DNA of 64,000 nt from Eledone cirrhosa (lineage: Eukaryota): assembly GCA_964016885.1 (NCBI GenBank), contig OZ024759.1, positions 12,152,001 to 12,216,000 on the forward strand. The letters are read 5' to 3'. Below the pieces are notes generated by a model. The model was not told where the DNA came from and searched no databases. It was given only the letters and a program-made list of their open reading frames with translations. Positions 2,352 to 59,720 of the stretch are shown here, one piece after another. Each line of letters begins with the position of its first letter. Within the stretch, counting starts at the first letter, position 1. Made by a program: the position numbers and the translations under genes.

Positions 2352-18301
<15,950 letters not shown>

Positions 18302-18528: not shown

Positions 18529-18760
18529 TACAAAACTTACTTTTATTGCTTTTTATTAAACCCTTTTCTCACTATATTTTTAATTAAAGACACTGTCTAC
18601 GATTTTATAATAATTCTGAAAATAATCAAGAATTTAGAAGGATTTAGTAATATAACTAACTTTCTCATTATTAAGCTAGTATTTGGAACATAACTTGACA
18701 AAGGTTCTTACATAAAATTATGATGAATGGAAGATTTGTAGATAAATATGAACACTTTAA

Positions 18761-34000: not shown

Positions 34001-37000
34001 AAGATCCTTGATATGGCTTCTGTGTTCAAGGAACTTGATCTGATTTGTGATTTCAAAGGGCTTGTTGTTATCACTAGAGTTTTTGAGAACTTTATTTTGA
34101 CTTGTGTTTTCAAGGGATTCAACTAAATCTTCTTTCAAAGACTGATTTTCATTGCGAAGATGTTCCAAAGATTGGTTTAAACGCAAGATTGTCTCAGTGA
34201 GGACCTTCATCTTGGGGTTGTTGCTGCCGCTCTCTTTAACAGGCCTGAAATATAAGGAATTTTAGAGAGTATAGGGCACACAACTGTTGTTGTTGTTGAT
34301 ACTACACAGCTTTGTACAGCAACAGCGATGTGGTGGTGGTGGTGGTGATGTTGGTAGTGGTGGTGGTGGTAGTGGTGTTGTTGTTGTTGTTGGTGGTGGT
34401 GGGAGTGGTGTTGTTGTTGTTGGTGGTGGTTGTGGTGGGAGTGGTGGTGTTGTTGTTGGTGGTGGTGGTGGTGGGAGTGGTGTTGTTGTTGTTGGTGGGA
34501 GTGGTGTTGTTGTTGTTGTTGGTGGTGGTATTATTGTTGTTGTTGTTGGTGGTAGTGGTGTTGTTGTTGTTGTTAGTGGTGGTAGTGGAAGAGGAGAAGT
34601 AGAAGACAAAGAAGCAAATGAAAATGCAACAAAGATGTGTTTGTGTGTGTGTGGGGTGGGGGGTGGGGGGTCAAAGATTAATAATAAAAAAAAACCCAAA
34701 AAACCCTGCAGACCCCCCCCCCCCCCACTGCCATTATATTTAGGTGGTGTTTTTTGTTTTAATTTTTGTTTCTTACTTGTGTTCAGTGTTGCAGTTCTGC
34801 AGTCGTAGAATTTCCTGGTAGAGTGTCTCCACCTGGATATGAAACTCTTCAATTTTGGTGGTTTTTAAGTCACTCTTTAGTTTCCTGGAACAAAGGAGGA
34901 GAAGAAGTAATATATATTTATATAGTGTGAATGTATATATACAACAATGATAGTTAGAAAATGTTAGAAACCATTCTCCTCCTTACATGTAGGCGTGATC
35001 TTTAGATTTCAGTTGTGCCTCAAGTTTCATAATTCTTTGTTTGAGATTGGAGACTACCTGTCATATATAAAGGGAAGAATTAAAGTTGGGATTGTTGTGT
35101 GTATGTGTATGTGTGTTTGTATGCAGTGTGTGTATGCATTTGTATGTACATGTATGTGTGTATGTGTGTGTATTCTAAATTATTAAAATATTCTCAAGAT
35201 CTCCGGTCCTACTTACCACAAAGGAGTCTGGCCGTCGGTCAGTCAAAGTTCTCCGAAAATCTTCATTCTATCAAAAAATGGAGAAATTAAATTCATATTT
35301 TCTTTAAATCCTTGAATCATACAACAACAACACATCATCATCATCATCGTTTTAACATCTGCTTTCCTTTCTGACAAGAGTTGGATGGGTCTACATAGAT
35401 CAAGTCAGTGCTGAAACGGGGCAACTGACCTCCCAGACAGGCTGGGGGTAGGGGCCTGCTTCTCGTTTACATATGGTCTTATGTTCTACCAAGTGCACCA
35501 GCACAGGAGAAATCGTCATGTCTTTGATACAACTGAAGGGTCCTCCCAACCCTTTGTTTGGCAGGCTTTCTATGGCTAGATGCCCTTCCTGTCACGATAA
35601 ATTTTTATCACCCCCCTCCCCCATCTCGGGCACAGCTGTGTGGTTAAGAAACAAGCCTCATTCCAATCATTTATAGAGTGTACTGAATATATTTCATTGT
35701 GACACCAGTACTTCCACTTCACAGAGGGTACTGGGTGTTTTATATTGTGGCACCACCACTACCACTTTACAGAGTGTACTGGGTGCTTTATATCCGGCAT
35801 GTCAAACTGTGGGTCTCATATGTGTTGTCTGAGGGCCTCACATGACAACTAATTGCGCACATTACAGCTAATATTTTTTATTTTATATTACGCTCTCGCT
35901 GCAAAAACCTTAGTGTGGGCCACAGGTGTGCTTCTAAAGGGCCGCATGTTCAACATGTCTGCTTTGTGACACCAGCACTACCACTTTACAGAGTGTACTG
36001 GGTGCTTTACACTGTGGCACCAGCACTACTACTTTACAGAGTGTACTGGCTGCTTTATACTGTAGCACCAGCACTACCACTTTACAGAGTGTACTGGGTG
36101 CTTTACACTGTGACACCAGCACTACCACTTTACAGAGTGTACTGGGTGCTTTACACTGTGACACCAGCACTACCACTTTACAGAGTGTACTGGCTGCTTT
36201 ATACTGTAGCACCAGCACTACTACTTTACAGAGTGTACTGGGTGCTTTATACTGTAGCACCAGCACTACCACTTTACAGAGTGTACTGGCTGCTTTATAC
36301 TGTAGCACCAGCACTACCACTTTACAGAGTGTACTGGGTGCTTTACACTGTGACACCAGCACTACCACTTTACAGAGTGTACTGGGTGCTTTACACTGTG
36401 GCACCAGCACTACTACTTTACAGAGTGTACTGGCTGCTTTATACTGTAGCACCAGCACTACCACTTTACAGAGTGTACTGGGTGCTTTACACTGTGACAC
36501 CAGCACTACCACTTTACAGAGTGTACTGGGTGCTTTACACTGTGACACCAGCACTACCACTTTACAGAGTGTACTGGCTGCTTTATACTGTAGCACCAGC
36601 ACTACCACTTTACAGAGTGTACTGGGTGCTTTACACTGTGACACCAGCACTACCACTTTACAGAGTGTACTGGGTGTTTTACAATGTGGCAACAGCACTA
36701 CCACTATACAGAGTGTACTGGGTGCTTTACACTGTGACACCAGCACTACTACTTTACAGAGTGTACTGGCTGCTTTATACTGTAGCACCAGCACTACCAC
36801 TTTACAGAGTGTACTGGGTGCTTTACACTATGACACCAACACTACCACTATACAGAGTGTACTGGGTGCTTTACAATGTGGCACCAGCACTACCACTTTA
36901 CAGAGTGTACTGGGTGCTTTATACTGTAGCACCAGCACTACCACTTTACAGAGTGTACTGGGTGCTTTACACTGTGGCAACAACACTACCACTTTACAGA

Positions 37001-40000
37001 GAGTACTGGGTGCTTTACAATGTGGCACCAGCACTACCACTATACAGAGTGTACTGGGTGTATTTAACACGTTTTTCATAAGTTATATCTACTCACCTTC
37101 CCAGGATCAAGGAGTCCCGTGATTTCTTTCTCCTGAAATAAATTTAGGACAAAGATTAGATTTTGCTTTGTGTCTACAGTATTACACCACACCACGCCAT
37201 ACCACACCACACTACGCCACACCGCACTACACTACATCACACTACTCCACACTGCACTATACCACACTACACTACACCACACCATACTACACTATACCAC
37301 ACTACACAACACTACACCACACCACACCACACCACACCACACTACACCATACTATACCACACCACACTACGCCATACCACACTACACTACACTACACCAC
37401 ATCATACCACACTACACTATACCACACTACACAACACTACACTACACCACACTGCACTACACTACACCACACCATACAACACTACACTACACCACACCAC
37501 ACCGCACCGCACCACACCACACTACACCATACCATATCACACCACACCACACCATACCACACCACACCACACCACACCACACTACACTACACCACATCAT
37601 ACCACACTACACTACACTACACCACACCATACTACACTACACCACACCATACCATACCACACTACACTATACCACACTACACAACACTACACTACACCGC
37701 ACCACACTACACTACACCACACCATACCACACTACACCATACCACACTACACAACACTACACCGCACCACACTACACCATACCACACCACACCATACCAC
37801 ACTACACTACACCACATCATACCACACTACACTACACCACATCATACCACACTACACTATACCACACTACACAACACTACACTACACCACACCACACCAC
37901 ACCATACCACACTACACTACACCACACCATACCACACTACACAACACTACACTACACCACACTGCATCACACCATACCACACCACACCATACCACACTAC
38001 ACTATACCACACTACACAACACTACACCACACCATACTATACCACACTACACCACACCATACCATACCACACTACACCACACCATACAACACTACACCAC
38101 ACCATACCATACCATATCACACCACACTACACCACACTACACCATACCATGCCACACCACACCATACCAAACCATACCACACTACACCACACCACACCAT
38201 ACCTCACTACACCACACCACACCACACCATACCACACCACACCACACCACACCATACCTCACTACACCACACCACACTACACCACACCATACCACACTAC
38301 ACCACACCATACCACACCACACCACACTACATCACACAACACCATACCACACCACACGACACCACACCATACCATACCACACTACACCATACCATACCAC
38401 ACTACACCACACCATACCATACAATACCACACCACACCATACCACACTACACTACACTACACTACACTACACCATACCACACCACACCATACCATAGCAC
38501 ACTACACCACACCATACCATACCACACTACATCACACCACACCACACTACACCATACCATATCACGCCACACTACACCACACCACACTACACCACACCAC
38601 ACTACACCATACCATATCACACCACACCACACCATACCACACTACATCACACAATACCATACCACACTACACCACACCACAACACACTATACCACACCAC
38701 ACCATACCACACCACACCATAACATATCACACCACACTACACCACACCACACACACCACACCACACTACACCACACCATATCACACCACACTACACCATA
38801 CCATATCACGCCACACTACACCACACCACACCACACCATACCACACTACATCACACAATACCATACCACACTACACCACACCACAACACACCACACCATA
38901 CCACACCACACCATAACATATCACACCACACTACACCACACCACACACACCACACCACACCATATCACACCACACTACACCACACCACACCACACTACAC
39001 CACAACCACCATTACACCACCAGTTCCCCCACCTCACCACTGCCACCATTACACTACAACCGCCCCACCACTACATTACCACCATTACACCACCCACCAC
39101 CACAAGTTCACCCACCCCACCACTGCCACCATTACACTACAACCACCACCCCCACCACTACACCACCGCCCCCACCACCACTAGTCACATGTTGCATACA
39201 TTTGATTGTGGAAATGAAACAATGGTCATGTTATTGTGATACGTGAGAGGAGACATTAAAAGAAATTACAAGACTTTGTCATAACTAATTAAATAATGTG
39301 GACTAATGCTGACCCTGGCGTGAGGTACCGGGATGGTGCTACCATTAACCTCTTTAACCCATTACCATTTACATTACTCTATATATCATCATCATCATTT
39401 TACGTCCGCTTTTCCCTGCATGCAAGGGTGGGACGGGAACTGATTCTGGCTTGATTTCTACAGCTGGATGCCCTTCCTAACACCAACCTCATTTACAGTG
39501 GGTGCTGGGTACTTTTTTGCCGTGGCACCTCCATGACCACTTTGCAGTGGAATGATAGGGACCCCAGTCCCTATCATCTCATTTCTACAGCTGAGTAAAC
39601 TGGAGCAATGTGAAATAAAGTGTCTTGCTCAAGGAAACAACACATCACCCGGTCTGAGAATTGAACTCACAACCTTTCGATTGCAAGGTCAATGCTCTAA
39701 CCACTAAGTCATGTGCCTCATATATATATATAACGAAGGAAATGTGGTAAGGAACCAGATGGACCATAACGCACCAAAGTACTCAATACTTAGGGTAGTA
39801 GAGTGGGTAATAGGAACGAGTAGGACCCCAACGGCTGAGCTCAAGCCGTTTCGACGGCTAATTCTGGACTAAATGAACATTTTTATCCTGGTACATGAAT
39901 AGCCGAGCTTCTTAGGGGGTAATTCCATATATGGTAAAAGTGATTGTCACAAGGATTGGTCAAAATTTTACGTATTAAATTTTTCATATATATCGTACGA

Positions 40001-40746: not shown

Positions 40747-43700
40747 ATTAACAAATGGAAACTATATTTATTTCATTATACATATTTCAAGGACACCAAG
40801 TTAAATTATGGTGTGCTTTCATCAGATAAAATATAATATAGATCAGTTTTATAAATAAATATTGACATACCCTTAAAGAATGCAACCATTACTGTTGGAA
40901 GCTCCCGGATAAGGGTATGACAATATTTATTTATAAAACTGCCCTATATTATATTTTATCTGATGAAAGCACACCATAATTTAACTTGGTGTCCTTGAAA
41001 TATGTATAATGAAATAAATATGGTTTTATAAATATAGTTTCCATTTGTTAATATCGTATTTTTACTCCAAATATTTGTTGAGTGCTTTATATCAGTTATA
41101 AAAATATTTGCTTGTTGTATCCCAACAATTTAAATAGAACTTTTACATATATATATATTGTATTTTCACATAGTATCAAATCAATGAGATTTTGATATTT
41201 ATTTTGAGAACAATACCTTAACATAAGTATGAGTGGCCAGTTACAGCCCGTTTGAACAGAAAGGATAAGGGAATTTTGGTCAGATACAGCTGGTTTAACC
41301 CTTTACCATTCACATTACTCTATATATATACTATTATATTTTCATGGGCGGTGAATTGGCAGTATCGGTAGAGGGTTGGACGCCATGTTTTCTAGCATAT
41401 TTACGTCCCTTTTCGGTCTGAGTTCAAATCCCGCCGAGGTTAACTTTGCCTTTCATCCTTAAGGGGTCGATAAAATAAAGTACCAGTAATGTACTGGGTA
41501 ACTGCTGGCCTTGTGCCTAAAGTAGAAACAATTATATTTTCATGGTAAAGGCTTTACCTTACATATATATCACATAATATCGAATCTATGAGATTTTGAT
41601 ATTCATTTTGAGAACAATACCTTAACATAAGTATGAGTGGCCAGTTACAGCCCGTTTGAACAGAAAGGATAAGGGAATTTTGGTCAGATACAGCTGGTTT
41701 AACCCTTTACCATTCACATTACTCTATATATATACTATTATATTTTCATGGTAAAGGCTTTACCTTACATATATATCACATAATATCGAATCTATGAGAT
41801 TTTGATATTCAATTTGAGAACAATACCTTAACATCAGTATGAGCGGTCAGTTACAGCCCACTTGAACAGAAAGAGGTGAGGGAATTCTGGCCAGATACAG
41901 CCGGTTTAAATGTTAAAGGGTTAAGTAGCTGACTATCCTGGGGTGTAGACTAGACATATTGTATGTATGTGTGGAGCCATAACTCAACAGGACATACAGT
42001 GCTAAGAAGCTGTTAAGAGAGCTGGCTGTAGCCGGCCAGAATTCCCTCAGCTCTTTCTGTTCAAACCAGCTGTAACCAGCCATTCATACTGATGTTAAGG
42101 TATTGTTCTCAACATAAATAATATCAAAATCTCGTAGATTCGATATTAAGTGAGATAAAGCCTTTACCGTGAAAATTCTGTCATAACGAATTTTTCAGTA
42201 TAACAAAATATTTTTCAATCCCCGAGGTAATAGCAAAGAAATGCTTCATTATGTTTCGGTAGATCTCGTTATAAAGAATTTTTCTTTATAATTGTTTCTA
42301 CTTTTTGGCACAAGGCCATCAATTACCCAGTGCATTACTGGTACTTTATTTTATCGACCCCGTAAGGATGAAAGGCAAAGTTAACCTCGGTGGGATTCGA
42401 ACTCAGAAGGGCAAGGGCTGTAACTCTATGCGTCAAAGCATAGCGTCCGACCCTCTACCGATACTGCCAATCCACTTTTTCTTTATAATGGAATTTCACT
42501 GTATAGAGTCATGTAAATGGAAAAGGGTTAATTCTTGATTATTTTGATAATTAACATACAAAGGCAGTATATTTATGGAGCACTTCAGGTATTGTGGACA
42601 TGTTCAGCCCTCCCCTGCAACAGGTGTAATAGCAACCAACTGACCTTTTTCAGATTATCCTCTTCCAATCGACGTAGTTTAGTCTTCACTGTAGAGTTTT
42701 CATGCTTTAGTGCTCCAATTTCCTAACAAAGAAGATTAAGAACAAGCAGAAAGGGAGATCATTATTTATTTATAGATATTTATGACCTATCTTAACAGAG
42801 CAGAGATATATAAGACATGCCTTAACAGAGCAGTAGTTAAGACATATCTTAATAGAGCAGGTGTATTTGTGATCTATCTTATCAGAGCAGAGATATATAA
42901 GACCTATCTTATCAGAGCAGAGATATATAAGACCTATCTTATCAGAGCAGAGATATCTAAGATATCTTAACAGAGCAAAGATATCTAAAACCTATCTTAA
43001 CAGAGCAGAGATATATAAGACCTATCTTATCAGAGCAGAGATATATAAGACCTATCTTATCAGAGCAGAGATATCTAAGACCTGTCTTATCAGAGCAGAG
43101 ATATCTAAGACCTGTCTTATCAGAGCAGAGATATCTAAGACCTCTCTTATCAGAGCAGAGATATCTAAGACCTCTCTTATCAGAGCAGAGATATCTAAGA
43201 CCTCTCTTATCAGAGCAGAGATATCTAAGACCTCTCTTATCAGAGCAGAGATATCTAAGACCTCTCTTATCAGAGCAGAGATATCTAAGACCTGTCTTAT
43301 CAGAGCAGAGATATCTAAGACCTCTCTTATCAGAGCAGAGATATATAAGACCTGTCTTATCAGAGCAGAGATCTAAGACCTCTCTTATCAGAGCAGAGAT
43401 ATCTAAGACCTGTCTTATCAGAGCAGAGATATCTAAGACCTCTCTTATCAGAGCAGAGATATCTAAGACCTGTCTTATCAGAGCAGAGATATCTAAGACC
43501 TCTCTTATCAGAGCAGAGATATCTAAGACCTGTCTTATCAGAGCAAGGGTAGATGAGAAATGTGAAGGGAAAGAGAGAAAGATGGACACAAACCTTTCTT
43601 AATTGCAGCACTTCATCATAATATTCCTCTTTACTCTTGTAGAGGGGGGTGCCTGATGCAACACGAGCTGTAACGGCACATAGACAGACAGTCAGACAGG

Positions 43701-46700
43701 CAGACAGTCAGATAGTCAGACAGACAGACAGATAGTCAGACAAACAGACAGATAGTTAGACAGACAGATAGTCGGACACATAGTCAGACAGACACATAGA
43801 GAGATAATCAGACAGACAGACACAAATAAACAGATAGTGAGACAGACACACAGATAGACAGATAGTTAGACAGACAGATAGACAGATAGTCAGACAGTCA
43901 GACAGACAGATAGTCAGACAGACAGACCACAAACAGACAGATAGTTAGACAGACAGATAGACAGATAGTCAGACAGTCAGACAGATAGTCAGACAGACAG
44001 ACAGATAATCAGACAGACAAACAGACAGATAGTTAGACAGACAGATAGACAGATAGTCAGACACATAGACAGATAGTCAGACAGACAGACAGATAATCAG
44101 ACAGACAAACAGACAGATAGTTAGACAGACAGATAGTCAGACAGTCAGACAGATAGTCAGACAGACAGACAGACAGATAGTCAGGCAGACAGACAGACAG
44201 ACAGAGAGACAGAGAGACACTTGTACAGTGGGTGCCTGATGTCACATGAACTGTGACAACACACAGACAGACAAATAGATGGAGTTAACAAAATGAATAA
44301 ACCTAATATTTATTTATTTTAATTACCCACAAAAATACCAAAAAACCACCTACGGGAATTGATATCAGGCATCCTTGGGGACTTAGCAAATCCCATAACC
44401 TGTCTGAGGTAGGTAGAAGTACTGTTATATGGTAGATTAGCGTCGGGTCTCTTGGATGAGAGGCAGTTTGTATTGATCATACCGGTATTTTCAGTACTGT
44501 AACCTGACATAAAGAATATTAAAGACATTGGAATATATATTCAATGGTTGTGTTATTGCCGTCAAAAATGGCGGCAGTAATACAGAAGACCCAACTTCCC
44601 ACGGGTACAAACCGAAGCCGAAGCATATAGACAGTATGTCTCCATCCCCCTCCCACTGTAAAGTGGTCGTGTAGGTGTCATGACAAAAGGCACCCAGTCT
44701 ACACTGTAAAGTGGTAATGTAGGTGTCATGACAAAAAGCACCCAGTCCACACTGTAAAGTGGTAGTGTAGGTGTCACAACAAAAAGCACCCAGTCCACAC
44801 TGTAAAGTGGTCATGTAGGTGTCATGACAAAAAGCACCCAGTCCACACTGTAAAGTGGTCGTGTAGGTGTCACGACAAAAGCACCCAGTCCACACTGAAA
44901 AGTGGTCGTGTAGGTGTCACAACAAAAAGCACCCAGTCCACACTGTAAAGTGGTAGTGTAGGTGTCACAACAAAAAGTACCCAGTCCACACTGAAAAGTG
45001 GTCGTGTAGGTGTCATGACAAAAAGCACCCAGTCCACACTGTAAAGTGGTCATGTAAGTGTCACAACAAAAAGCACCCAGTCCACACTGTAAAGTGGTCA
45101 TGTAAGTGTCACAACAAAAAGCACCCAGTCCACACTGTAAAGTGGTCATGTAGGTGTCACAACAAAAAGCACCCAGTCCACACTGTAAAGTGGTAGTGTA
45201 GGTGTCACAACAAAAAGCACCCAGTCCACACTGTAAAGTGGTAGTGTAGGTGTCATGACAAAAAGCGCCCAGTCCACACTGTAAAGTGGTAGTGTAGGTG
45301 TCATGACAAAAAGCACCCAGTCCACACTGTAAAGTGGTCATGTAGGTGTCACAACAAAAAGCACCCAGTACACACTATAAAGTGGTAGTGTAGGTGTCAC
45401 AACAAAAAGCACCCAGTCCACACTGTAAAGTGGTCATGTAGGTGTCACAACAAAAAGCACCCAGTCCACACTGTAAAGTGGTTGGTGTTAGCAGTAGAAA
45501 TCTAGCCAGAAACAGTTCTGTATGAGTAAGATACGGTCACCTGACCCAACCTGATGGTGGTGGTGGGGTGGCAGTACCATCCGGTTGATCCATGACCCCA
45601 CAAGACAAATAAAGTTTACAGAGGCACCTGGGTGGAATTGAACAACATAAGGTCCTCACCTGGTATACGAGAGATGTGGTGTTCAATCTCCCACAAGTAC
45701 CTCTGTACACTTTATTTTCTATCTTCAGGGGTATTTTACTCAATTATTTCAACTAATATTTATAATCAGCAACTATTATTGTAGTTACCAGCATTGCGGT
45801 GACTATATTTTCAAATTTTATAAATTTCCAAATACTTTGTAATTCAAACCAAATCTTGTTTACAAATATATTTTTAACAAAAGAAAATATAAATAGTGGT
45901 GGATTGGCAGTATCAGTAGAGCGCCAGACAAGAGGCTTTGCAGCATAGAGTTACGGCCCTTTACGTTCTGAGTTCAAATTCTGCCGAGGTTAGCTTTGCA
46001 TTTCATCCCTACAAGGTCGATAAAATAAAGCACCAGTAATGCACTGCGGTCAATTTAATTGACTTTCTTCTCCCCCAAAATTGTTGGCCTTGTGCCTAAA
46101 TTAGAAACCTTTATTATAGTTACCAGCATTGTGGTGACTATATTTTCAATTTTTTAAAATTTCCCGATGCTTTGAGACATGGGCAGCAACTGCAGAGGAT
46201 ATGCGATGGCTGGAGAGAAATGAAGCAAGCTTGCTCCGATGGATGTGCAATGTCAATGTGCATGAACAACCAAGCATAGATGAGTTGTGTGAGAAACTGT
46301 GTATAAGAGGGATAAACTGTAGTGTGCAGGAGAGAAGACTGCGATGGTATGGACATGTGATGCGCATAGAGGATGACCGCTGGGTAAAGAAGTGCCAAAT
46401 AATGCCAGTGGAAGGAAGACGCAGCAGAGGAAGACCATGTAAAACATGGGCGGAGGTGGTGAGAGCAGACCTCAGATCGCTGAAGCTCAGCTCACAGAGG
46501 AGATGACAAAGGACCGTGACAAGTGGAGAGATGCTGTGCTGAATAGGGCCCGTCCCACCCTTGCAAGCAGGAAAAAGCGGACGTAAAATGATGATGATGA
46601 TGATGAAAAGAAAATATTTAAATTATAACAATGACACACAAGCACCATTGATAACATGTATCACTTTGTAAGGGATTGGTTGTTGCATATGAAATGTCGT

Positions 46701-49700: not shown

Positions 49701-52700
49701 TCTGTTTACATTCAGCGTAGCGTCTTACGTTCTGTTTACATTTTCTGCGTGCAAAAATTAAAAAAATTACGCTGGCTTTCTCAGCGTTTAAAATGACTTT
49801 GACCTGCAAAATTCATCAGTTTGAACACTAAGCTTCCGTTTTGCTTCATTTCCATTTAAAAGCCTTTTAAAACAATATTTTTACTTGAAAACAAGTCTAT
49901 TTAAAGACTACGTAAAACAAGCAAATATTTCGTAAAAAAAAGCAAAAATTATATAAGTTTATTTAAAATATATGTATCTGTAAATTTCGTTAGGCGTGCA
50001 GACAGACAGTCGTGCAGACAGACAGTCGTGCAGAGAGGTGATATAGGCGTGCAGACAGACAGTCGTGCAGAGAGGTGATATAGGCGTGCAGACAGACATA
50101 ACTGATAATTTGGTTACGCTAATGTTTTTCTCTGCGTTGCAGTGTTTACATTTTCGATCTTTGTTAATAAATAACCAGTGCAGTTTCTATCCCCAGCATC
50201 CTCTTTTGTTATAACATTCGGGTTATCGTTATGTTTTCTTAACTTCATAAGGCATATTGTTGGTTGAGGGAATATTAATCAAAAACACCACATGCAAGTC
50301 TGCACAGTAGACACTACAGTTTTTAAGCCAAAAAAGAAACTTAACATTGTAACTTTAACACAGCTACTGAGCGACCCCGAGCAACGCCGGGCTTTACTGC
50401 TAGTTTATCTATAAAACCTTCCATCATAATTTTAATAAAGAACCTTTGTTAAGTTATGTTCCAAACATCTCTGGTTCTACAATACTAAGCTGTTTGTTTT
50501 AAAGTGTTTATATTTATCTAAAAACCTTCCATCATAATTTTATGAAGGAACCCTATAAAAGTTTTGCTTCAAGCACCAGCTTAATGATGTTGGTGATCTA
50601 CATGATAAACGATCACCCAGTACACTCTATAAAATGGCTGGTGATAAGAAGGGCATCCAGTTATAGAAAACTTGCCAAATAAAATTTGAGAAGACTCTTT
50701 AGCTATGCTAAAGGAGGACATGAAAACTTGCCTAGTGTTTGTCCTGTATTGAATACATGCGCAAAGGCTTGGTGACATTAATTCCGCCCAAGGGTGACGG
50801 GTGCAAAAACTTAAACAGAAAAGTTTAGTTGCTGCTAGTATTTCCAGCCTGCCAAGACATATCCAGCGCTCCGTCTATCACCATCAGCAACTCAGGACAC
50901 CATTAGCTGACACATTTCATATGCCACAACATGGCCTTATTTTTATATGGCAGTATCGGTAGAGGGTTGGACACCATGCTTTACGGTCTGAGTTCAAATC
51001 CTGCCGAGGTTAACTTTGCCTTTCATCCTTACGGGGTCAATAAAATAAAGTACCAGTAATACACTGGGTAATTGATGGCCTTGTGCCAAAAGTAGAAACA
51101 CTTATTCTCATATACAAAGCAAGGACTTTACTTCTCCAATGTGAGTAACTGAAAGCTAATATTTACAACACTCATGGACTTGAACATTATTTCCCACTGA
51201 CCTGCTCACATACACCTTTGTTCTCACATCCCAACACACCATCTTTACATTCACACATATTCTGTATTAGTTATGCTTGTCAACATGACTTAATAAATTC
51301 CTTTGTTTTCAATCAAAACACCTTTTTATATCACTGCTGACCATCTTGCTACAGTCCCATGATAAAATGCACTCAGTAGAGCATGGAATCATATGTCGAG
51401 CCCTCAGCCCACCTGGATGTCAAAGGTTCTGCTTGAGAACTGACCAGTCTCCTACAACGTGTCCAAACCTTACTAGCAGGGATAACAAACATTAACCGAT
51501 GATGATGATAGAAGAAATAATTGTTTCTACTTTTGGCACAAGGCCAGCAATTATCCAGTACATTACTGGTACTTTATTTTATCGACCCCGTAAGGATGAA
51601 GGGGAAAGTTAACCTTGGCGGGATTTGAACTCAGAATGGCAAGGGCCATAACTCTATGCGTCAAAGCATGGCGTCCGACCCTCTACCGATACTGCCAATC
51701 CAGATAGAAGAAATAATAATGAAGATGATTTAACCCTTTAGCATTTAAGCAGGCCGTATCCAACTGTTCAAACCGGCTGTAACCAACTGCTCGTACTAAT
51801 GTTAAGGTATTGTTCTCAAAATAAATAATATTAAAATCTCATAGATTCGATATTATGTGAAAATACAATAGTATATACAGAGAAATGTAAATGTTATGTG
51901 AGATATTATGTGAGGTAAAGCCTTTACTGTGAACATACAATAGTATATATAGAGAAATGTAAATGTTATGTGAGATATTATGTGAGGTAAAGCCTTTAGT
52001 GTGAAAATACAATAGTATATATATAGTAATGTAAATGTTATGTGAGATAATTATGTGAAGTAAAGCCTTTACCGTTGAAATACAATAGTATATATAGAGT
52101 AATGTAAATGTTATGTGAGATATTATGTGAGGTAAAGCCTTTACTGTGAACATACAATAGTATATATCGAGTAATGTAAATGTTATGTGAGGTAAAGCCT
52201 TTACTGTGAACATACAATAGTATATATAGAGTAATGTAAATGTTATGTGAGTATTATGTGAGGTAAAACCTTTACTCTGAAAATACAATAGTATATATAG
52301 AGTAATGTAAATGTTATGTGAGATATTATGTGAGGTAAAGCCTTTACTGTGAAAATACAATAGTATATGTAGAGTAATGTAAATGTTATGTGAGATATTA
52401 TGTGAGGTAAAGCCTTTACCGTTGAAATACAATAGTATATATAGAGTAATGTAAATGTTATGTGAGATATTATGTGAGGCAAAGCCTTTACCGTTGAAAT
52501 ACAATAGTATATATAGAGAAATGTAAATGTTATGTGAGATATTATGTGAGGTAAAGCCTTTACTGTGAACATACAATAGTATATATAGAGTGGTTTCTTT
52601 ATTTGCCACTAGGGCACAAAAGGTAGGGACAGATACAAGGGGGGAAGTTTACATATAATTAACGAGTACAAAAATATAACAATGAAATAACAACAACAAA

Positions 52701-55700
52701 CGAAGTCCTCAATAGGGAGGGGGCATTAACATGGGTCGCACACACCCCGGAAAAAATGTGTAACCCTTCTCCTCAGGAGCACAAAGAGTAGGTGCTTCCC
52801 TCGTCTCCTCTTTTTCCTCTTCTTTCACCTACAGGCTGATATAGAGAGAAGACCCATTCACTCTGGCCATTCTCCCTACTTTCACCCACCTTTCATAAAA
52901 CTTGCTGGGGTAGAGCACCTCTCTCTCCATTCTGATCCTTCTTTTAAAATGGTATTTGAAAAAGGGGACCAGTTGTTGGCCGGAGAGAAAGGTGTCTGAC
53001 CTCAGCCCTTTCAGCCTCGTCCACCATACAACTTATTTAGCCATGGCTACCACACAGAGAAAAAAAACCGCCTCTCCTTCGTTTTTGAAAGGGGGAGGCG
53101 GTTTGATCGTGACAATGGACTCGGTGGTCAACCGGATTGGTCCCACCCTCGACAGTAGTCGTTCCACATAGCCCCACAGGTCAGCAATGCCTGGGCAGTG
53201 TACGAATGCGTGCGCAACGGTTTCGTCATCATGCACGCATCTCGGACAGATCTTATTCAAAGGATCTCTACCCAGGCTCCCATGCCTGTGGAGCTTGTCT
53301 CGAACGGGTAGAGCCCCTCGGTAGCACTGCCAAGCCAGGGACTTTTGGAAGTTGTCCATCGGTCCAGGGCCAAACGTCCTACCGAACAGACTGGCCAGTT
53401 CATCTTCCTCCATGCCTAGAGCTTCTCCGAGAGCATCGTCGCACCTGCTGCGTACCAACCCTCTATAGAATGTCGAGGTGGAGTCTCCACTGATTGCCGG
53501 GTCCGCTTTCCAGAGGGCCGTGAGCGCCTGGGCACATTCAATGTGCCAGTCGCCCACTTTTCTCGGTCTTTGCTTGACCCAGGATTGCAGCTCGGTGAGC
53601 GAGACGAGTCTGGGAAAGGCTCGCCTCACAAACGGGGCCCACACCGGTTGACCGGTGAGGAATACCTGGAGGTGCCGTAGCCTTAATGCGTGTTTACGCA
53701 TCTGTAGCCACGGCATCCCCAGCCCTCCTTTCGAAGGGTGTTGACAGCAGATGGATCTCCTCACCAAAGGGGTCCGCTTGTTCCAAAGAAATTGGAACAG
53801 CGCGCACTCCATTTTGGCGAGTCTTTTCACTGGGCAAGGCACGACGGTCAAGCGGTAGTAGATGACGGATGCTATATAAGTATTCGCCACCTCCGCTCGA
53901 CCTTTCAGGGATAGTTTGCACTGGGCCCACTTCTGGGTGAGTGCAAACACCCTGGCCGTTACCTCGTTCCAGTTTTTCTCCACCTGGAGGTCTGGTCCGA
54001 ACCAGACCCCAAGCAGCTTCACCGGGCCCTCCGTCCAGCGTCCGACGACGTCGTTGGAGGGCATCGGTTTGCCTCTCCATGTTCCGAGTTGCAAACCGAC
54101 GGACTTGTCCCGGTTCAGCTTGGCTCCTGTAAACCTTTCATATTCCTCCAGTAAGGTGCCGATCTCACCGATTTGCGAGGTTTTCGACACCATTACTGTC
54201 ACGTCATCGGCGTAGGCCGACGCCGCTTTCTGCAATCCCGGTTCCAAAGGGATGCCCTGCAACCGCTCCAACTTCCGCAGTAGTGGCTCAAGAGCCAGCA
54301 CATACAGTAGGGAGGAGAGAGGGCATCCCTGTCGGATGGATCGCATGATTTGGAACGGCTCCGAGAGGTGGCCGTTCACCTTGACCCTTGAGCAGACGTT
54401 GCTGCTGTGCATCGCAGCAATCCAACCCCTGAAAACGGGTCCGAAGCCTGCCGCCGCGAGCACCGCATCCAGGTAACGATGGTCAACCCTATCGAAAGCT
54501 TTAGATTGATCCAAGTTGATCAGGGCCCCACCAAAGCCGGGTTCATTCCCTACCCTCTCTATGATGTATCGCATAAGGTGGAGATTGTCGTGAATGGACC
54601 TGGACGGGATTGCGCATGTCTGCGCTTCTCCCACCAGGTTTCCAACGACAAGCGCCAACCTCTTCGCTAACACCTTGGCCAAAATCTTTAACTCTGTATT
54701 TAGCAGAGTTATGGGCCTGAAGTTACTTATGTCATCCCCCTTGTTCTCATCCTTCCTCACCAGCGTAACTACGCCCTTGGTCACAGAACTGGGAATTCTC
54801 CCGTTCTGCTGCCAGTTGCAGTAGACCGCTTCGAGGATATCGGAGAACAAGTCCGGCATCGCTACATATAGCTCGTATGGTAGACCATCGAGACCCGGGG
54901 ATTTGCGTTTGCCGCATTGGCTCAGCGCCGCCCCTATCTCAGCAGCTGAAATCGTCCTTTCGCAGGATTTCGCCTCCGCGTCCGAGAGGCGCGGCAGACC
55001 GTCGAGGTATGGATTGAAATCCATAGTCTCACCCGGCGCGCCGCCCCTCTCGAACAGTCGTGCAAAGTGCCGCTGAAAGGCCGCACACATCTGCCCAGGT
55101 TCAAGGATCACACGCCCATCCTGGTCCTTCAAAGACCGAATCGTGGACTTGTTCCCACTTTTTGCCTCTGTCACTCGGGCCCAGCTTACAGCTTTGGCTC
55201 CCTCATTACCCAGAGCACGTATTTTACTCCTGACAACGCAGCCTTCATGCTTCACCTCAAAGAACTGGTCTAAGGCCATTCTTGATGCCAGCACGCCGGC
55301 TACATTGCCACTCCTAATCGCCTCTTCTACTCTATCTACTAATTCCCTTTCCGTCTTGTTCCTATCCCTTGCTAATTCCTGACTAAAACCTATCGATTCT
55401 ATTCTAATTGCTCTCTTAAGAGAGCTCCACCACCTGTTGTTGACAATTGCCCCTGTCAAACTCTGCTTAACTAACGTGCTAATCCGTTTACTGTAAGCTT
55501 TGCTTCTCGGTAAGGACAAGTTCAGCTTCCAGTAACCGGGTCCCTGTCTATGGGTTCTATCAAGGTTGGCTATGCAGGTCACTAACTTGTGATCCGAATA
55601 GTCAACCATGAACATTTTTGGACAGCTAAATGTGTCCCTATCGTTCTCTCTAACTAGGACCCTATCTAGGTACGACCTAGATGTTCCACTGCGATTGGTC

Positions 55701-58700
55701 CACGTCCATAGTGGTACAGTCGGAAAATCTAGTCGATATCTATCGGCCAGGTCAAATCGGCCGATTAACCTTTTGAGGCTTTTACACCCCCCTCTATTGG
55801 CACATGCCCCTACATAGTCCCAACGTGCATCCAGGATACCATTCCAGTCCCCCACTAAAAGCAAGGAGCGGGACGTTCCCAGAAAAGTTTCCAGACGTTG
55901 GAAGTATTCCGGCCGCGCTGCCCAAAAAGGGGCGTACACAGCTATTAGTCTAAGGGCTCCACTTTCACTACTGCCGACGTCTAAAACCACCAGTCGACCC
56001 TCCGGGTCCAGGTGCACCTTCTGTATGGCGAGGCCCAGGTGTTTTCGCAGCAGAACGACAACTCCACCCCCACCCCCCGGTTGACAGAGAGATGCGAAGA
56101 TCTCAAAGTCGTCGAAGAGGGGCGCCAGTTGGTGCTCGCTGCTGATCCTGGACTCGCAAATAGCCATTACATCCATTCTATGCGACCTGAGATCGTTTAA
56201 AAGTTTGCCTTGTTTCCAAGACAGTCCCAGGCCACGTACATTCAGACACCCAACTCTTATATCAGCCATGTTGGTTAAAAGAGGAAGGACCTACCTGTTC
56301 GGCTCCTGAGGAGCAGGTTGCACAATATCCATGGGCGTATTGGAGGGGTTGTTTGGTGGGGTGTTGTTCTGTGGTGGAGTGGGGGTGTTTGGTGAGGTGT
56401 GGGTGGGGAAACGTTTCAAGAGGACGCGGTTATAGGGTCGAGTACATGTTTTCCCCACGTCCTCAGGAAAGTTCTCTCTTAGTTTTGCATAGGTGTCCAT
56501 TGGGAGTCTTATCATTTTTAAATGCGGTTTGTTGGCCGCGCTTGCAAAGAATTGTCCTTCAGTTTCCACCAAAGGGTCTTTGTGTATTGTTTTTACTAGT
56601 TCTTTGTTATTTGTGTTAATGTATGTATACTGTTTTATTTGTGTTGTGTTTGTTTGTTGTTCTTGTGTGTGCTTACGTTTTGTTGTATGTGTTATGTTTT
56701 GGGGTGGGGCGGATTTTGTTTGTTCTGTTTGTTTTGTTTTTGTTGGTGGTTGTGTGTTTGTTTCGTTTATGTTCGAGTGGTGCTTTCTTTTTTTCCTTTT
56801 TACAGGTTGGAAGGGTTCCCCCTCTTCGTCACTAGGTGCCGTTTCCGCTGGGTCCTCGTCCGTGCTGTCGGGTAGTGGTGTATTTTGGGGTTTTGTTGTA
56901 TTTGTGTGTGTTTTGGGAGTTGTTTTGGGTGGGGCCGTGTCTTGTGTTATTTTTCCCTGTTGTTTTTGTTGTTGTTGTGGTGGTGGTGGTGGTGGTGGAG
57001 GTGTTGGTGGTGGTGGTGGTGGCGGTGTGTGGGGTGTAGGCAAAAGAGCCTTTTTTTTTGTCAATTGAGGACAAGCAGCCCTTAGATGACCCCTGCTTGA
57101 ACAGTAGTAACATATGGGCCTCCTACCCTCGGCTGAAATATATATAAATGTTTCTCCATCGAGGGACACCCTCTGTGGTATTCTAGCGATTCGTTCTGGT
57201 CTCATTTGGACCAGAACCTCCACGCTCAAACCGCCGAAAACGTCTGTGGTGACTTCTCCTACTGAGAGGATTCCGTCCTCGTCTTCTAAAAACCCTGTTA
57301 GTACCCAGGAAATGCATGCATTTGGCCGGATTCCGGAGACCCTTATCTTCTGCGTTCTTTTCCCTAAATATGTGGGGAAAAATGTATGTAGCTTGGAAAC
57401 AATTGGTGCCACAGAGTATTTCCTGGCCGTCAATTGATCCTTCATTAGGACCGTTATATTCCCATAGAGTGGCCCTTTTTGTATGAACGATATATCACTC
57501 CACACATTTTTTAGGACCAGCTCAATCTCTTTTTGGGATAATTGAGTTGGTTTCCTTGTTATGTTGGAAATTGTTCTGAAAGATATCGTTCTTAGCGTCG
57601 TGTCTCTTTTGATTTCTTGTGGGGAGGTGATTGTGAAGTCTCCTCCTTCTTTGAAAGTTACATACTGTTTCGCTTCCTTCATCTTTTCTCTCAGAGTTGT
57701 AATGTCCAGTTGCTTGCAGGTTTGTGTTTTCCGGACCGCCTGTGCAAAGGAGGTACCAGTAGTGGGTTCGCTTTGTTTGGTGTTATCGTTATTTTTTCCT
57801 TGGTTGGTGTTGTGACTATTGCTGTTATTGTCGTTGTTGTTTTTGTCTGCGTTTATGTGACTTTCTGGGTTTTCACCCATTTTTTCAAGTTTTTCTTTTA
57901 TTTCCGTGTTCCATGTTTCTTTTGCAGAAGTCAGGAGGGAAGACTTAGAGCCTTGTGCTTCTAGCTTCTCTGTATCACCTTTCTTAGGGGGCGTGGCTTT
58001 CACGTTAGGATGAGATGTGAAAATTCCGTCCATTTCTATTAGTTTGCCGTAATAAATTTTTAACTGGAAAATTCGCCCCAAAAAGGGGCGAAAATAAATA
58101 AACTCAAAGTTTGACGACCAAGGCAAGGGGTTAACGTATATTACAGTATAAAAAAATTAATCAAAACTCACTTTTTGAGTAAGTAAATCCGACTCGGTAG
58201 CCGAGCTTGTTCACACACGTCAACACACGTCTCTCGTATACGAGATGTTATGTGAGATATTATGTGAGGTAAAGCCTTTACTGCGAAAATACAATAGTAT
58301 ATATAGAGTAATGTAAATGTTATGTGAGATATTATGTGAGGTAAAGCCTTTACTGTGAAAATACAATAGTATATGTAGAGTAATGTAAATGTTATGTGAG
58401 ATATGTAAGGTAAAGCCTTTACTGTGATATTATAATAGTATATATAGAGTAATGTAAATATTATGTGAGGTAAAGCCTTTACTGTGAAAATACAATAGTA
58501 TATATAGAGTAATGTAAATGTTATGTGAGATATTATGTGAGGTAAAGCCTTTACTGTGAACATACAATAGTATATATAGAGTAATGTAAATGTTATGTGA
58601 GGTAAAGCCTTTACTGTGAAAATACAATAGTATATGTAGAGTAATGTAAATGTTATGTGAGATATTATGTGAGGTAAAGCCTTTACTGTGAAAATACAAT

Positions 58701-59720
58701 AGTATATATAGAGTAATGTAAATGTTATGTGAGATATTATGTGAGGTAAAGCCTTTACTGTGAAAATACAATAGTATATATAGAGTAATGTAAATGTTAT
58801 GTGAGATATTATGTGAGGTAAAGCCTTTACTGTGAAAATACAATAGTATATATAGAGTAATGTAAATGTTATGTGAGATATTATGTGAGGTAAAACCTTT
58901 ACTCTGAAAATACAATAGTATATATAGAGTAATGTAAATGTTATGTGAGATATTATGTGAGGTAAAGCTTTTACCGTTGAAATACAATAGTATATATAGA
59001 GTAATGTAAATGTTATGTGAGATATTATGTGAGGTAAAGCCTTTACTGTGAAAATACAATAGTATATGTAGAGTAATGTAAATGTTATGTGAGATATTAT
59101 GTGAGGTAAAGCCTTTACTGTGAACATACAATAGTATATATAGAGTAATGTAAATGTTATGTGAGATATTATGTGAGGTAAAGCCTTTACCGTTGAAATA
59201 CAATAGTATATATAGAGTAATGTAAATGTTATGTGAGATATTATGTGAGGTAAAGCCTTTACTATGAAAATACAATAGTATATATAGAGTAATGTAAATG
59301 TTATGTGAGATATTATGTGAGGTAACGCCTTTACTGTGAACATACAATAGAATATATAGAGTAATGTAAATGTTATGTGAGATATTATGTGAGGTAAAGC
59401 CTTTACTGTGAACATACAATAGTATATGTAGAGTAATGTAAATGTTATGTGAGATATTATGTGAGGTAAAGCCTTTACTGTGAACATACAATAGTATATA
59501 TAGAGTAATGTAAATGTTATGTGAGATATTATGTGAGGTAACGCCTTTACTGTGAACATACAATAGTATATATAGAGTAATGTAAATGTTATATGAGGTA
59601 TTATGTGAGGTAAAGCCTTTACTGTGAAAATACAATAGTATATATAGAGTAATGTAAATGTTAAAGGGTTAAATTTACTTACATCGTCTTCTAGAAGATG
59701 ATCTGGAATTCATCTTGTAC
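22304..59720 (-). CDS. IQCE: IQ motif containing E orthologue, 18 exons, about 615 aa
   Basis: Phase-consistent exon chain. [65 protein letters not shown] and [10 protein letters not shown] match human IQCE motifs as recalled. IQ-like motifs [26 protein letters not shown] and [15 protein letters not shown] lie near the C terminus. Confidence 0.9.
22370..22720 (+). mobile_element. Probable Helitron 5' fragment
   Basis: TCTATATTTATAAAAATGAAAATGTCTGTCTGTG resembles the 5' end at 49476. Confidence 0.5.
22733..23945. repeat. 36-bp palindromic minisatellite, about 33 copies
   Basis: GTTATGAATTGTTGGAAAAGA(G/A)TTCATAACTTTGAA. Confidence 0.95.
24726..24910 (-). CDS. IQCE: IQCE exon with two IQ-like motifs ([18 protein letters not shown]...[16 protein letters not shown]...VF)
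   Basis: ctccag / gtatgt. Confidence 0.87.
25097..26253. mobile_element. piggyBac-type MITE with about 14 tandem 72-bp units
   Basis: TTAA|CCCTTTAG...CTAAAGGG|TTAA, intact TTAA on both sides. Confidence 0.85.
26264..26359 (-). CDS. IQCE: IQCE exon with IQ motif ([32 protein letters not shown])
   Basis: caacag / gtagga; IQxxWR motif. Confidence 0.87.
27131..27245 (-). CDS. IQCE: IQCE exon ([14 protein letters not shown]...PQTP)
   Basis: tttcag / gtaaga. Confidence 0.83.
28279..28377 (-). CDS. IQCE: IQCE exon ([18 protein letters not shown]...RRS)
   Basis: ctgtag / gtattt. Confidence 0.82.
28528..28910. repeat. 70-bp tandem repeat, alternating A/B units
   Basis: TTCCTAACTAAATG at 28561, 28631, 28701, 28771 and 28840. 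Confidence 0.9.
28928..29081 (-). CDS. IQCE: IQCE exon ([19 protein letters not shown]...KAEEL)
   Basis: cctcag / gtaagg; ORF 28924-29121. Confidence 0.87.
29153..29735. repeat. 48-bp minisatellite containing a MITE terminus
   Basis: GTCTTTCATTAGAAATATGGTAATGAAAGGGTTAATGACATAGACAGT. Confidence 0.9.
29887..29962 (-). CDS. IQCE: IQCE exon ([25 protein letters not shown])
   Basis: ttacag / gtgagt. Confidence 0.85.
30290..31270. repeat. 28-bp minisatellite, about 35 copies
   Basis: CAGTCGACATAATCACCCCTTCCTTCCT. Confidence 0.92.
31355..31413 (-). CDS. IQCE: IQCE exon ([19 protein letters not shown])
   Basis: ttccag / gtatgt. Confidence 0.82.
31446..32433. repeat. 72-bp satellite in a truncated piggyBac-type MITE (opposite orientation), cut by a Helitron 3' end
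   Basis: CCCTTTACC terminus followed by about 13 units. Confidence 0.8.
32434..32500 (-). mobile_element. Helitron 3' end
   Basis: Minus strand CCCGTGCAACGCCGGG-ATACACTG-CTAG|T, at the A|T of a satellite unit. Confidence 0.75.
32888..33420 (-). mobile_element. Tx1 ORF2 fragment
   Basis: ORF 32840-33409 closely matches ORF2 ([33 protein letters not shown]). Confidence 0.9.
33907..34244 (-). CDS. IQCE: IQCE exon (PVKESG...[10 protein letters not shown]...SEAD)
   Basis: tttcag / gtaagt; overlaps ORF 33716-34210. Confidence 0.88.
34777..34884 (-). CDS. IQCE: IQCE exon ([35 protein letters not shown])
   Basis: ttccag / gtaaga. Confidence 0.9.
34987..35057 (-). CDS. IQCE: IQCE exon ([23 protein letters not shown])
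   Basis: gacag / gtaagg. Confidence 0.9.
35217..35267 (-). CDS. IQCE: IQCE exon ([17 protein letters not shown])
   Basis: tgatag / gtaagt. Confidence 0.88.
35965..37062. repeat. 48-bp minisatellite, about 23 copies
   Basis: CACCAGCACTACCACTTTACAGAGTGTACTGGGTGCTTTACACTGTGA. Confidence 0.92.
37097..37132 (-). CDS. IQCE: IQCE exon ([12 protein letters not shown])
   Basis: tttcag / gtgagt, 36 nt. Confidence 0.88.
37183..39010. repeat. Degenerate pentanucleotide satellite (CACCA/CACTA/TACCA)n
   Basis: Direct inspection; gives H/T/P/Y pseudo-ORFs in all three frames. Confidence 0.95.
40607..40698 (+). ncRNA. Hammerhead-like motif with variant core
   Basis: ACCCC-CTGAGAA-..CGGCTA..TAGCCG..-GAAA-CGGCT..AGCCG-TC^-GGGGT; inverted copy at 39825-39920. 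Confidence 0.55.
40769..40833 (-). ncRNA. Type I minimal hammerhead ribozyme motif (left arm of inverted repeat)
   Basis: Reverse complement of 40952-41016. Confidence 0.72.
40952..41016 (+). ncRNA. Type I minimal hammerhead ribozyme motif
   Basis: TATTTTAT-CTGATGA-AAGCACACCA..TGGTGTCCTT-GAAA-TA[TG]TA-TA^-ATGAAATA. Confidence 0.75.
42645..42722 (-). CDS. IQCE: IQCE exon ([26 protein letters not shown])
   Basis: gttag / gtcagt; KLRRLEE motif. Confidence 0.9.
42784..43546. repeat. 30-bp minisatellite
   Basis: GAGCAGAGATATCTAAGACCTCTCTTATCA. Confidence 0.92.
43594..43667 (-). CDS. IQCE: IQCE exon ([24 protein letters not shown])
   Basis: ttacag / gtttgt; strong motif match. Confidence 0.9.
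43682..44219. repeat. (CAGA/TAGA)n tetranucleotide satellite
   Basis: Direct inspection. Confidence 0.9.
44354..44503 (-). CDS. IQCE: IQCE exon (YSTENTG...[10 protein letters not shown])
   Basis: tgtcag / gtaggt, phase 1-1. Confidence 0.75.
44652..45490. repeat. 47-bp SINE-derived minisatellite
   Basis: CCAGTCCACACTGTAAAGTGGTCGTGTAGGTGTCACAACAAAAAGCA. Confidence 0.9.
46172..46605 (+). mobile_element. RTE LINE 3' fragment with (GAT)n tail
   Basis: [17 protein letters not shown]; near-identical to the reverse complement of 10710-11120. Confidence 0.9.
47365..47686. mobile_element. hAT-type MITE
   Basis: TIR CAGAGGTTCT / AGAACCTCTG; perfect 8-bp TSD GTCTAGAT. Confidence 0.9.
47750..47839 (-). 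CDS. IQCE: IQCE exon ([29 protein letters not shown])
   Basis: tctcag / gtaact, phase 1-1. Confidence 0.8.
48842..50545. repeat. 108-bp tandem repeat interrupted by the Helitron
   Basis: CATCATAATTTTATGCAAGAACCTTTGTTAAGTTATGTTCCAAAC recurring. Confidence 0.9.
49476..50403 (+). mobile_element. Complete non-autonomous Helitron
   Basis: 5' TCTATCTATATATATAAAA; 3' hairpin CCCGAGCAACGCCGGG then CTAG; inserted at A|T with no TSD inside a 108-bp unit that resumes exactly. Confidence 0.9.
53033..56269 (-). CDS. LINE ORF2: APE endonuclease + reverse transcriptase + C-terminal zinc finger (1078 aa; frame continues past TAA to TAG at 52829)
   Basis: NVRGL, GDWNG, LDRV, SDH (APE); KSPGLDG, RPITLLN, QGCPLS, YADD (RT); [14 protein letters not shown]. 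Confidence 0.97.
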   Translation of the reverse strand: MADIRVGCLNVRGLGLSWKQGKLLNDLRSHRMDVMAICESRISSEHQLAPLFDDFEIFASLCQPGGGGGVVVLLRKHLGLAIQKVHLDPEGRLVVLDVGSSESGALRLIAVYAPFWAARPEYFQRLETFLGTSRSLLLVGDWNGILDARWDYVGACANRGGCKSLKRLIGRFDLADRYRLDFPTVPLWTWTNRSGTSRSYLDRVLVRENDRDTFSCPKMFMVDYSDHKLVTCIANLDRTHRQGPGYWKLNLSLPRSKAYSKRISTLVKQSLTGAIVNNRWWSSLKRAIRIESIGFSQELARDRNKTERELVDRVEEAIRSGNVAGVLASRMALDQFFEVKHEGCVVRSKIRALGNEGAKAVSWARVTEAKSGNKSTIRSLKDQDGRVILEPGQMCAAFQRHFARLFERGGAPGETMDFNPYLDGLPRLSDAEAKSCERTISAAEIGAALSQCGKRKSPGLDGLPYELYVAMPDLFSDILEAVYCNWQQNGRIPSSVTKGVVTLVRKDENKGDDISNFRPITLLNTELKILAKVLAKRLALVVGNLVGEAQTCAIPSRSIHDNLHLMRYIIERVGNEPGFGGALINLDQSKAFDRVDHRYLDAVLAAAGFGPVFRGWIAAMHSSNVCSRVKVNGHLSEPFQIMRSIRQGCPLSSLLYVLALEPLLRKLERLQGIPLEPGLQKAASAYADDVTVMVSKTSQIGEIGTLLEEYERFTGAKLNRDKSVGLQLGTWRGKPMPSNDVVGRWTEGPVKLLGVWFGPDLQVEKNWNEVTARVFALTQKWAQCKLSLKGRAEVANTYIASVIYYRLTVVPCPVKRLAKMECALFQFLWNKRTPLVRRSICCQHPSKGGLGMPWLQMRKHALRLRHLQVFLTGQPVWAPFVRRAFPRLVSLTELQSWVKQRPRKVGDWHIECAQALTALWKADPAISGDSTSTFYRGLVRSRCDDALGEALGMEEDELASLFGRTFGPGPMDNFQKSLAWQCYRGALPVRDKLHRHGSLGRDPLNKICPRCVHDDETVAHAFVHCPGIADLWGYVERLLSRVGPIRLTTESIVTIKPPPPFKNEGEAVFFLCVVAMAK
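56291..58033 (-). CDS. LINE ORF1 (gag-like, CCHC zinc knuckle), 580 aa from the first ATG
   Basis: [14 protein letters not shown] knuckle, SFAQAV motif, P/Q/T-rich tail, basic PVKRKKRK; the ORF track starts at an upstream TTG (58126). Confidence 0.9.
   Translation of the reverse strand: MDGIFTSHPNVKATPPKKGDTEKLEAQGSKSSLLTSAKETWNTEIKEKLEKMGENPESHINADKNNNDNNSNSHNTNQGKNNDNTKQSEPTTGTSFAQAVRKTQTCKQLDITTLREKMKEAKQYVTFKEGGDFTITSPQEIKRDTTLRTISFRTISNITRKPTQLSQKEIELVLKNVWSDISFIQKGPLYGNITVLMKDQLTARKYSVAPIVSKLHTFFPTYLGKRTQKIRVSGIRPNACISWVLTGFLEDEDGILSVGEVTTDVFGGLSVEVLVQMRPERIARIPQRVSLDGETFIYISAEGRRPICYYCSSRGHLRAACPQLTKKKALLPTPHTPPPPPPPTPPPPPPPPQQQQKQQGKITQDTAPPKTTPKTHTNTTKPQNTPLPDSTDEDPAETAPSDEEGEPFQPVKRKKRKHHSNINETNTQPPTKTKQTEQTKSAPPQNITHTTKRKHTQEQQTNTTQIKQYTYINTNNKELVKTIHKDPLVETEGQFFASAANKPHLKMIRLPMDTYAKLRENFPEDVGKTCTRPYNRVLLKRFPTHTSPNTPTPPQNNTPPNNPSNTPMDIVQPAPQEPNR
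59683..59720 (-). CDS. IQCE: IQCE exon ([12 protein letters not shown]), may contain the start ATG
   Basis: ctttag acceptor, gtaagt donor; phase 1 fits exon 47750-47839. Confidence 0.65.

Follow-up and report, generated by a model that had tools for sequence, protein, structure and literature searches.

Does a LINE that sits inside a satellite, which itself sits inside a DNA transposon, owe its position to chance, to transport by its host, or to a target specificity of its own? This question is raised by positions 51734-59668 of the window (the whole 64,000-nt stretch of Eledone cirrhosa DNA analyzed here), where a TTAA-bounded non-autonomous piggyBac element holds 31 units of a 72-bp repeat, and these in turn hold a LINE. 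The first-pass annotation had described the same three-tier nest, and its outline and coordinates are borne out, since TTAA and TIRs are located at both ends, with the array and the LINE between them. The array, estimated there at about 30 units, has 31 target cores and a period of 72 (TRF); the LINE, put at 5.65 kb, has 5,653 bp; and the MITE of about 200 bp agrees with single-unit copies of 215-230 bp, which have TTAA at both ends and unique flanks. The features are given here in window coordinates.

51730-51733, no strand: TTAA, left target-site tetranucleotide of the piggyBac-type MITE; the outer flanks are unique in sampled copies
51734-51855, plus strand: left arm of the non-autonomous piggyBac (TIR at 51734-51747, then unique body), resembling the left end of an intact piggyBac
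51856-52591, plus strand: 72-bp array downstream of the LINE, 11 target cores
52592-58244, minus strand: L1/Tx1-type LINE, unique part, 5,653 bp, with no poly(A) tail, terminating in AATAAAGAAACC
52592-52828, minus strand: 3' UTR; its final two bases substitute for the target TT and are inherited per subfamily (TT, TC, CC)
52829-56269, minus strand: ORF2 (APE endonuclease, RT, zf-RVT), with a private stop at 53033-53035
56291-58033, minus strand: ORF1, 580 aa, with one CCHC knuckle and a Pro/Gln/Thr-rich C-terminal half
58034-58244, minus strand: 5' UTR, beginning with a 12-bp palindrome
58245-58269, minus strand: putative element-borne head, a copy of unit positions +41 to +65, its boundary probably lying at +37 to +41
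58245-59663, plus strand: 72-bp array upstream of the LINE, 20 target cores, with 7 bp absent at the junction
59655-59668, plus strand: right TIR of the MITE, overlapping the last array unit
59669-59672, no strand: TTAA, right target-site tetranucleotide

The TIRs read CCCTTTA(G/A)CATTTA. The left boundary is TTAA-CCCTTTAGCATTTA at 51730, and the inverted counterpart is followed by TTAA at 59669-59672; LINE aside, the content between the termini is a unique arm of ~120 bp and the 72-bp array. TTAA at both ends and CCC...GGG termini are of the piggyBac type, and this assignment, which had been proposed earlier, holds because an intact transposase-coding element has the same termini. A PF13843 search leads to 2.57-kb piggyBac elements with a 561-aa ORF, both ends of which start with TTAACCCTTTAGC as in the MITE, and the MITE copy at 13901 is 80% identical to the left end of an intact 2.57-kb element over the first 55 bases. 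L232-L258 include two transposase-encoding piggyBac families; the one whose ends match the MITE has several open 561-aa copies, and so may still be able to mobilize it. The MITE is abundant, a 26-base pattern from its right end occurring 13,249 times in the genome. Three more copies lie in the window (13901-14917, 25093-26257 and ~31443-32433), and their 72-bp arrays, at 14044, 25295 and 31505, have 12-13 units and no LINE. Shorter pieces of the MITE family are present near 3445, 15592, 18757-18960, 26741 and 41166-42531.

The LINE has two ORFs, the second with an N-terminal APE endonuclease and an RT (Exo_endo_phos, RVT_1 and zf-RVT in Pfam), as in the L1 group. In keeping with this, ORF2 scores 183 bits against human L1 ORF2p and at most 85 bits against R2, whose clade has a single ORF, a restriction-like endonuclease and a 28S target. 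ORF1 has a weak zf-CCHC match (16.9 bits vs the Pfam cut-off of 20.8) and no match to Transposase_22 or RRM in Pfam; ORF1 variants of the CCHC-knuckle kind that lack Transposase_22 are described as consistent with Tx1 in the relevant passage of PMC5203782. A target-sequence preference, common but not required in the Tx1 clade, is present as well (see below). We therefore use Tx1 as a probable label, which rests on the L1-group domains, the type of ORF1 and the insertion behavior, in a comparison that includes no named Tx1 references. Among named proteins, the closest match comes from Argonauta hians, at 68% across the RT region. A count of 13 recently active L1-Tx1 families is given for Octopus vulgaris in PMC13282606, in a passage that does not name their targets.

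The LINE had been taken to be complete in both ORFs, which stands for ORF1 (580 aa) but not for ORF2, which is broken in this copy (1,078 aa, vs 1,145 aa in open copies). Both the stop at 53033-53035 and an insertion of 3 bases near 53066 are private to the window copy, being absent in all 29 others compared. Among the 64 whole copies (the window copy counted), the 1,145-aa ORF2 is open in 21 and both ORFs are open in 11, which indicates that the family was probably recently active; the CC-ended copies have a mean identity of 99.0% from ORF2 onwards. Most copies are full length, since the exact 5' pattern occurs 268 times in the genome. There is no sign of spliced copies in the sample of internal-deletion junctions, of which 13 were tried and 12 resolved, none with GT..AG ends.

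We number the target so that +1 is the first base past the 3' end of the LINE. Genome-wide there are 254 exact matches to the 28-base 3' end, of which 249 continue with ACTCTATA, in one register of the 72-bp unit; one of the five exceptions was read and is the identical site with a variant base. With a looser pattern that admits older subfamilies, 332 of 334 ends are at the same register, and of the two exceptions, one proves to be a sister element, 81% identical, with a (TCTA)n end. When distinct 3' ends are read, 118 of 121 have ACTCTATA, three are one small change away, and all 121 are in the unit. In 3.0 Gb there are 40,719 exact occurrences of the 27-bp site, so that the chance of this register is about 7e-6 per random insertion. 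Random flanks, the outcome named in the first-pass annotation as contrary to its proposal, are thus not what is found. That proposal had left the choice between the MITE satellite and its TCTATATATA core; what is targeted, at one register throughout the genome, is the arrayed 72-bp unit and not the bare core. To regard the satellite as a putative dispersed safe haven is a reasonable reading. The 3'-most dinucleotide of the LINE is TT, matching the target, or else TC or CC, and it tracks the LINE tree. Because these bases before +1 follow the tree, they are borne by the element, which would place the nick between -1 and +5.

The 5' junctions are equally uniform. In 130 of 133 full-length copies the 5' end reads CACATAACAT, the other three having the same register with small changes, and in 130 of 133 the preceding unit stops at +65, so that, on balance, 7 bp of target are missing. 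An upstream unit is present in 132 of the 133, and none of the copies abuts the TIR. We analyzed the flanking units of 126 copies, having dropped L144 (no upstream unit), rows with identical flanks and flanks of <300 bases. Where units -2 and -3 have a variant in common, unit -1, next to the LINE, retains it in 30 of 41 cases at +1 to +36 and in 0 of 20 at +37 to +65. The same comparison made one unit further out gives 27/43 and 10/18, respectively (0/20 vs 10/18, Fisher p 9e-5, with the informative late variants numbering only 20); the head boundary is loose because +37 to +40 barely vary. Likewise, the exact consensus at +41 to +65 is found in 112 of 126 units -1, vs 59/113 (unit -2), 43/103, 37/78 and 32/62 in the neighbors, with no excess at +1 to +36 (43/126 in unit -1 vs 38/113 in unit -2). 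The last ~25 “satellite” bases ahead of full-length copies act as element sequence, and unit -1 does not duplicate the unit on the other side of the LINE.

Truncated copies behave differently. Eight of them have duplications of 1-17 bases in place of the 7-bp loss, and the consensus at +41 to +65 lies upstream in only one of these eight, while two have no upstream unit. Since they mostly lack the consensus upstream, the enzyme can apparently do without that stretch, whereas full-length joining cannot. Some copies run contrary to this: L126 is truncated (its body starts from position 3874) yet has a junction of the full-length type, in L182 the junction is at +40 and includes a short patch, and 14 of the 126 unit -1 sequences are non-consensus at +41 to +65. 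L134 has an interruption and tells nothing either way. The junctions are also blurred by array turnover subsequent to insertion.

The LINE family is young and inserts at one fixed position of the unit, and from these comparisons we think it probable that it does so by an endonuclease nick and that its full-length copies join by way of a ~25-base RNA head that anneals to the preceding unit. The RNA would begin with ~25-29 bases of the repeat, and its 3' end would extend a few bases into target sequence. Within the interval from -1 to +5, the bottom-strand T/A step at -1/+1 would be the candidate nick, and a cut in the top strand a few bases downstream would give the 1-17 bp duplications of truncated copies. 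In full-length copies, the target-derived end of the cDNA would pair with the upstream unit, and trimming of the overhang would leave the inherited 7-bp loss.

Because such a join needs a preceding unit, full-length copies would gather in arrays, even though single-unit MITEs are commoner. That 132 of 133 have an upstream unit, though most sampled MITEs have no second one (20 of 30 MITE ends from 0-31 Mb of contig C1 and 19 of 19 from 31-50 Mb, small samples from one contig), fits this dependence. Arrays accordingly number 10/30 in the distal C1 sample and 0/19 in the interior one, which suggests, for samples of this size on a single contig, that array growth depends on chromosome position. 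All 26 LINE copies on the 443-Mb C1 lie within 31 Mb of its start or 12 Mb of its end.

The proposed join has a counterpart in R2. According to the sections of PMC3774820 on junction formation, some R2 RNAs have their ribozyme cleavage 9-36 nt upstream in 28S rRNA, and this 5' target sequence is proposed to anneal upstream and so to give uniform junctions; a uniform 7-bp deletion in springtail R2 is inherited via the RNA; and similar heteroduplex models exist for L1 and R1. The same source calls completion of the 5' junction the greatest uncertainty of the R2 model. Full-length copies here share with R2, as described in those sections, the uniform 5' junctions with target-derived bases, even to the uniform 7-bp loss, and these bases override local alleles. 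The differences are that R2 encodes a restriction-like endonuclease in its one ORF, targets rDNA and uses an HDV-like ribozyme, whereas this LINE has an APE domain and two ORFs. No ribozyme that would fix the 5' end of its RNA was found: an Rfam scan of 57900-58500 gives two chance-level matches, neither near the gathering score, and a descriptor for HDV-like ribozymes, used without a positive control, gives 0 matches here and 0 in 30 shuffles. The RNA fold of the 5' end (z -2.3) consists of local hairpins and is not diagnostic.

The 7-bp loss and the consensus unit -1 are likewise predicted if there is no RNA head and ORF2p itself reads -32 to -8, makes its top-strand cut 7 bases upstream of the nick and accepts consensus units only. 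This would also account for L126, which is truncated and has the -7 junction. We consider it unlikely, though not negligible, because the eight truncated copies have downstream duplications without the 7-bp loss and seven of them lack the consensus upstream, so that the enzyme would need two cut sites, chosen according to the length of the cDNA.

Much less probable is that the LINE inserted a single time and the composite was then spread by the piggyBac transposase or by recombination between arrays. Hitchhiking of this kind was considered for SINEU-3 by Kojima and tested by means of truncated copies, as set out in the SINEU-3 part of PMC4494074, and we applied the same test to this LINE family: the eight truncated copies share the insertion site and have differing 5' junctions. 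The LINE copies are separate retrotranspositions because their flanks are mostly unique and their position within the array varies, with 1-20 units upstream and 1-23 downstream. The 3' flanks carry local array variants from +6 onward, the flanking arrays have private variants, unit -1 is no nearer to unit +1 than controls are, and the 3' dinucleotide forms a ladder of subfamilies. An intact piggyBac with matching ends does exist, and there are head-to-tail runs of up to six copies and a few copies with a common 5' deletion or flanks, so that hitchhiking, otherwise largely refuted, may account for a minority.

Several groups of copies are of interest in this respect. L135, L191, L045 and L046 have outer flanks in common and are probably segmental duplicates. 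More widely, L191-L194 (C20, 3.5-4.6 Mb), L135, L045 and L046 have in common a 166-bp 5' UTR deletion or outer flanks, and since the L194 ORF2 nevertheless groups with other copies, both segmental duplication and recombination between copies are indicated. Runs of five and six head-to-tail copies lie inside one array at C1:4.22-4.26 Mb and C10:40.72-40.75 Mb, some of them 65 bp apart; in some cases adjacent spacers are identical, and the runs thus owe something to tandem duplication as well as to repeated insertion. L100 and L101/L102 (C1, 10.99 and 11.03 Mb) are 40 kb apart in opposite orientation and have several hundred non-satellite bases in common, followed by exactly one consensus 65-bp piece and then the element, a pattern that may reflect either local duplication or 5' transduction.

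A long target-site duplication, in which the 65 bases before the LINE come from a top-strand cut 65 bp downstream, would be indistinguishable from a 7-bp loss in a tandem array and would suit the repeated dimer phase of L108, but we reject it as scarcely credible, since, among the 66 copies whose unit +1 departs from the consensus, unit -1 is identical to it in only 2, and private variants of unit +1 recur in unit -1 in 4 of 27 cases (control 2/29), so that arrays would have to have changed after nearly every insertion.

The origin of the target is suggested by the relatives of the LINE. The first-pass annotation had pointed to two older related 3' ends near 2170 and 4675; they do run into TATATCTATC, but they belong to a different, older sister family that ends in (TATC)n and not in the unit. 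This family is ~70-79% identical in DNA to the LINE family and has at least 1,764 copies by its 3'-end pattern, from which the 4675 end is one base off. Of 30 sampled copies, 27 continue with T(A/C)TATCT or GATATCT and none is in the 72-bp unit. In a tree of the last 365 ORF2 residues, computed from unnamed relatives and one Argonauta protein (rows with <150 aligned residues left out), two elements that end in ATATCTATC and have 83-87% identity to the LINE family form a group with it (support 85), and the larger sister clade adjoins that group (support 100). By parsimony the MITE target would thus derive from a (TATC)n habit. The nesting of the LINE family among these sisters might be taken to mean that it has only a loose preference for TA/TATC-rich, microsatellite-like DNA, with the 72-bp unit as one instance; this is hardly tenable for the MITE-targeting family, for which it is refuted by the 121 of 121 distinct 3' ends in the unit and by the sole exception fetched being from another family, and it probably describes the ancestor.

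One may go further, with slightly more doubt than confidence, and suppose that a (TATC)n-seeking ancestor captured 25 bases of the MITE repeat as an RNA head, so that full-length integration became possible only in grown arrays. The expansion of the satellite would then be the niche of the family and would confine it to array-rich chromosome ends, and the start site may itself come from the repeat. Old ORF2 fragments of related LINE families, with 49-73% protein identity, remain in the window at 4068-4562, 15216-15524 and 32894-33430.

The three-tier layout resembles the founding Tx1 arrangement of Xenopus, a likeness that the first-pass annotation had not pointed out. Tx1L of Xenopus laevis has its site within the internal tandem repeats of a TTAA element, and its insertion is accompanied by a 23-bp duplication. 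Tx1L in Tx1D and the present LINE are both sequence-specific APE-type non-LTR elements inside a non-autonomous piggyBac. The phylum and the target sequence differ, and in place of the 23-bp duplication full-length copies have the 7-bp loss with a putative head, and truncated copies short duplications. Since insertion of Xenopus Tx1 in Tx1D, a non-autonomous piggyBac, is on record (PMC4494074, PMC1950540, PMC6719617), a LINE parasitizing piggyBac is already known and no new principle is involved; what would set the present case apart is the element-borne head and the dependence on arrays. As presented in the Tx1 sections of PMC4494074, crocodilian Tx1-Mar and Tx1-9_AMi and teleost Kibi and Koshi are Tx1 families that prefer DNA transposons or microsatellites. 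They resemble the present family in their tandem insertions at the target, which in their case is Mariner, Harbinger or (TC)n/(TTC)n instead of a 72-bp MITE unit; the bar for “specific” set there is 20% of flanks, whereas here >98% are at one register. The literature searched yielded no account of a Tx1 element with target sequence at its 5' end, nor of this LINE family; Repbase, Dfam, subscription journals and supplements, which lay outside that coverage, may hold one. The MITE itself is like other non-autonomous piggyBac MITEs with satellite expansion in its TTAA ends, its TIRs in common with an autonomous partner and its amplified internal unit, and unlike them in that its arrays house a dedicated retrotransposon and are found, in the C1 sample, only towards contig ends.

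The family offers >300 near-identical insertions of an APE-type element in a tandem target that is naturally polymorphic, so that element-borne and host-borne bases can be separated from genome sequence alone. It also presents a switch of target, from microsatellite to transposon repeat, caught between relatives 83-87% alike in ORF2, and at this distance the determinants of specificity can be compared.

Other repeats occur in and near the arrays. From ~32432 onward in the window, an array is interrupted by an element whose end, with a hairpin and CTAG/TTAG, resembles the 3' end of a Helitron. Similar Helitron-like ends are present in L082/L124 and L086, and those of L082 and L086 join at one unit position, near +14. 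A second dispersed minisatellite, with a 48-bp unit, forms several arrays in the window, at 2443-3062, 21629-21896, 35965-37060 and 44654-45482.
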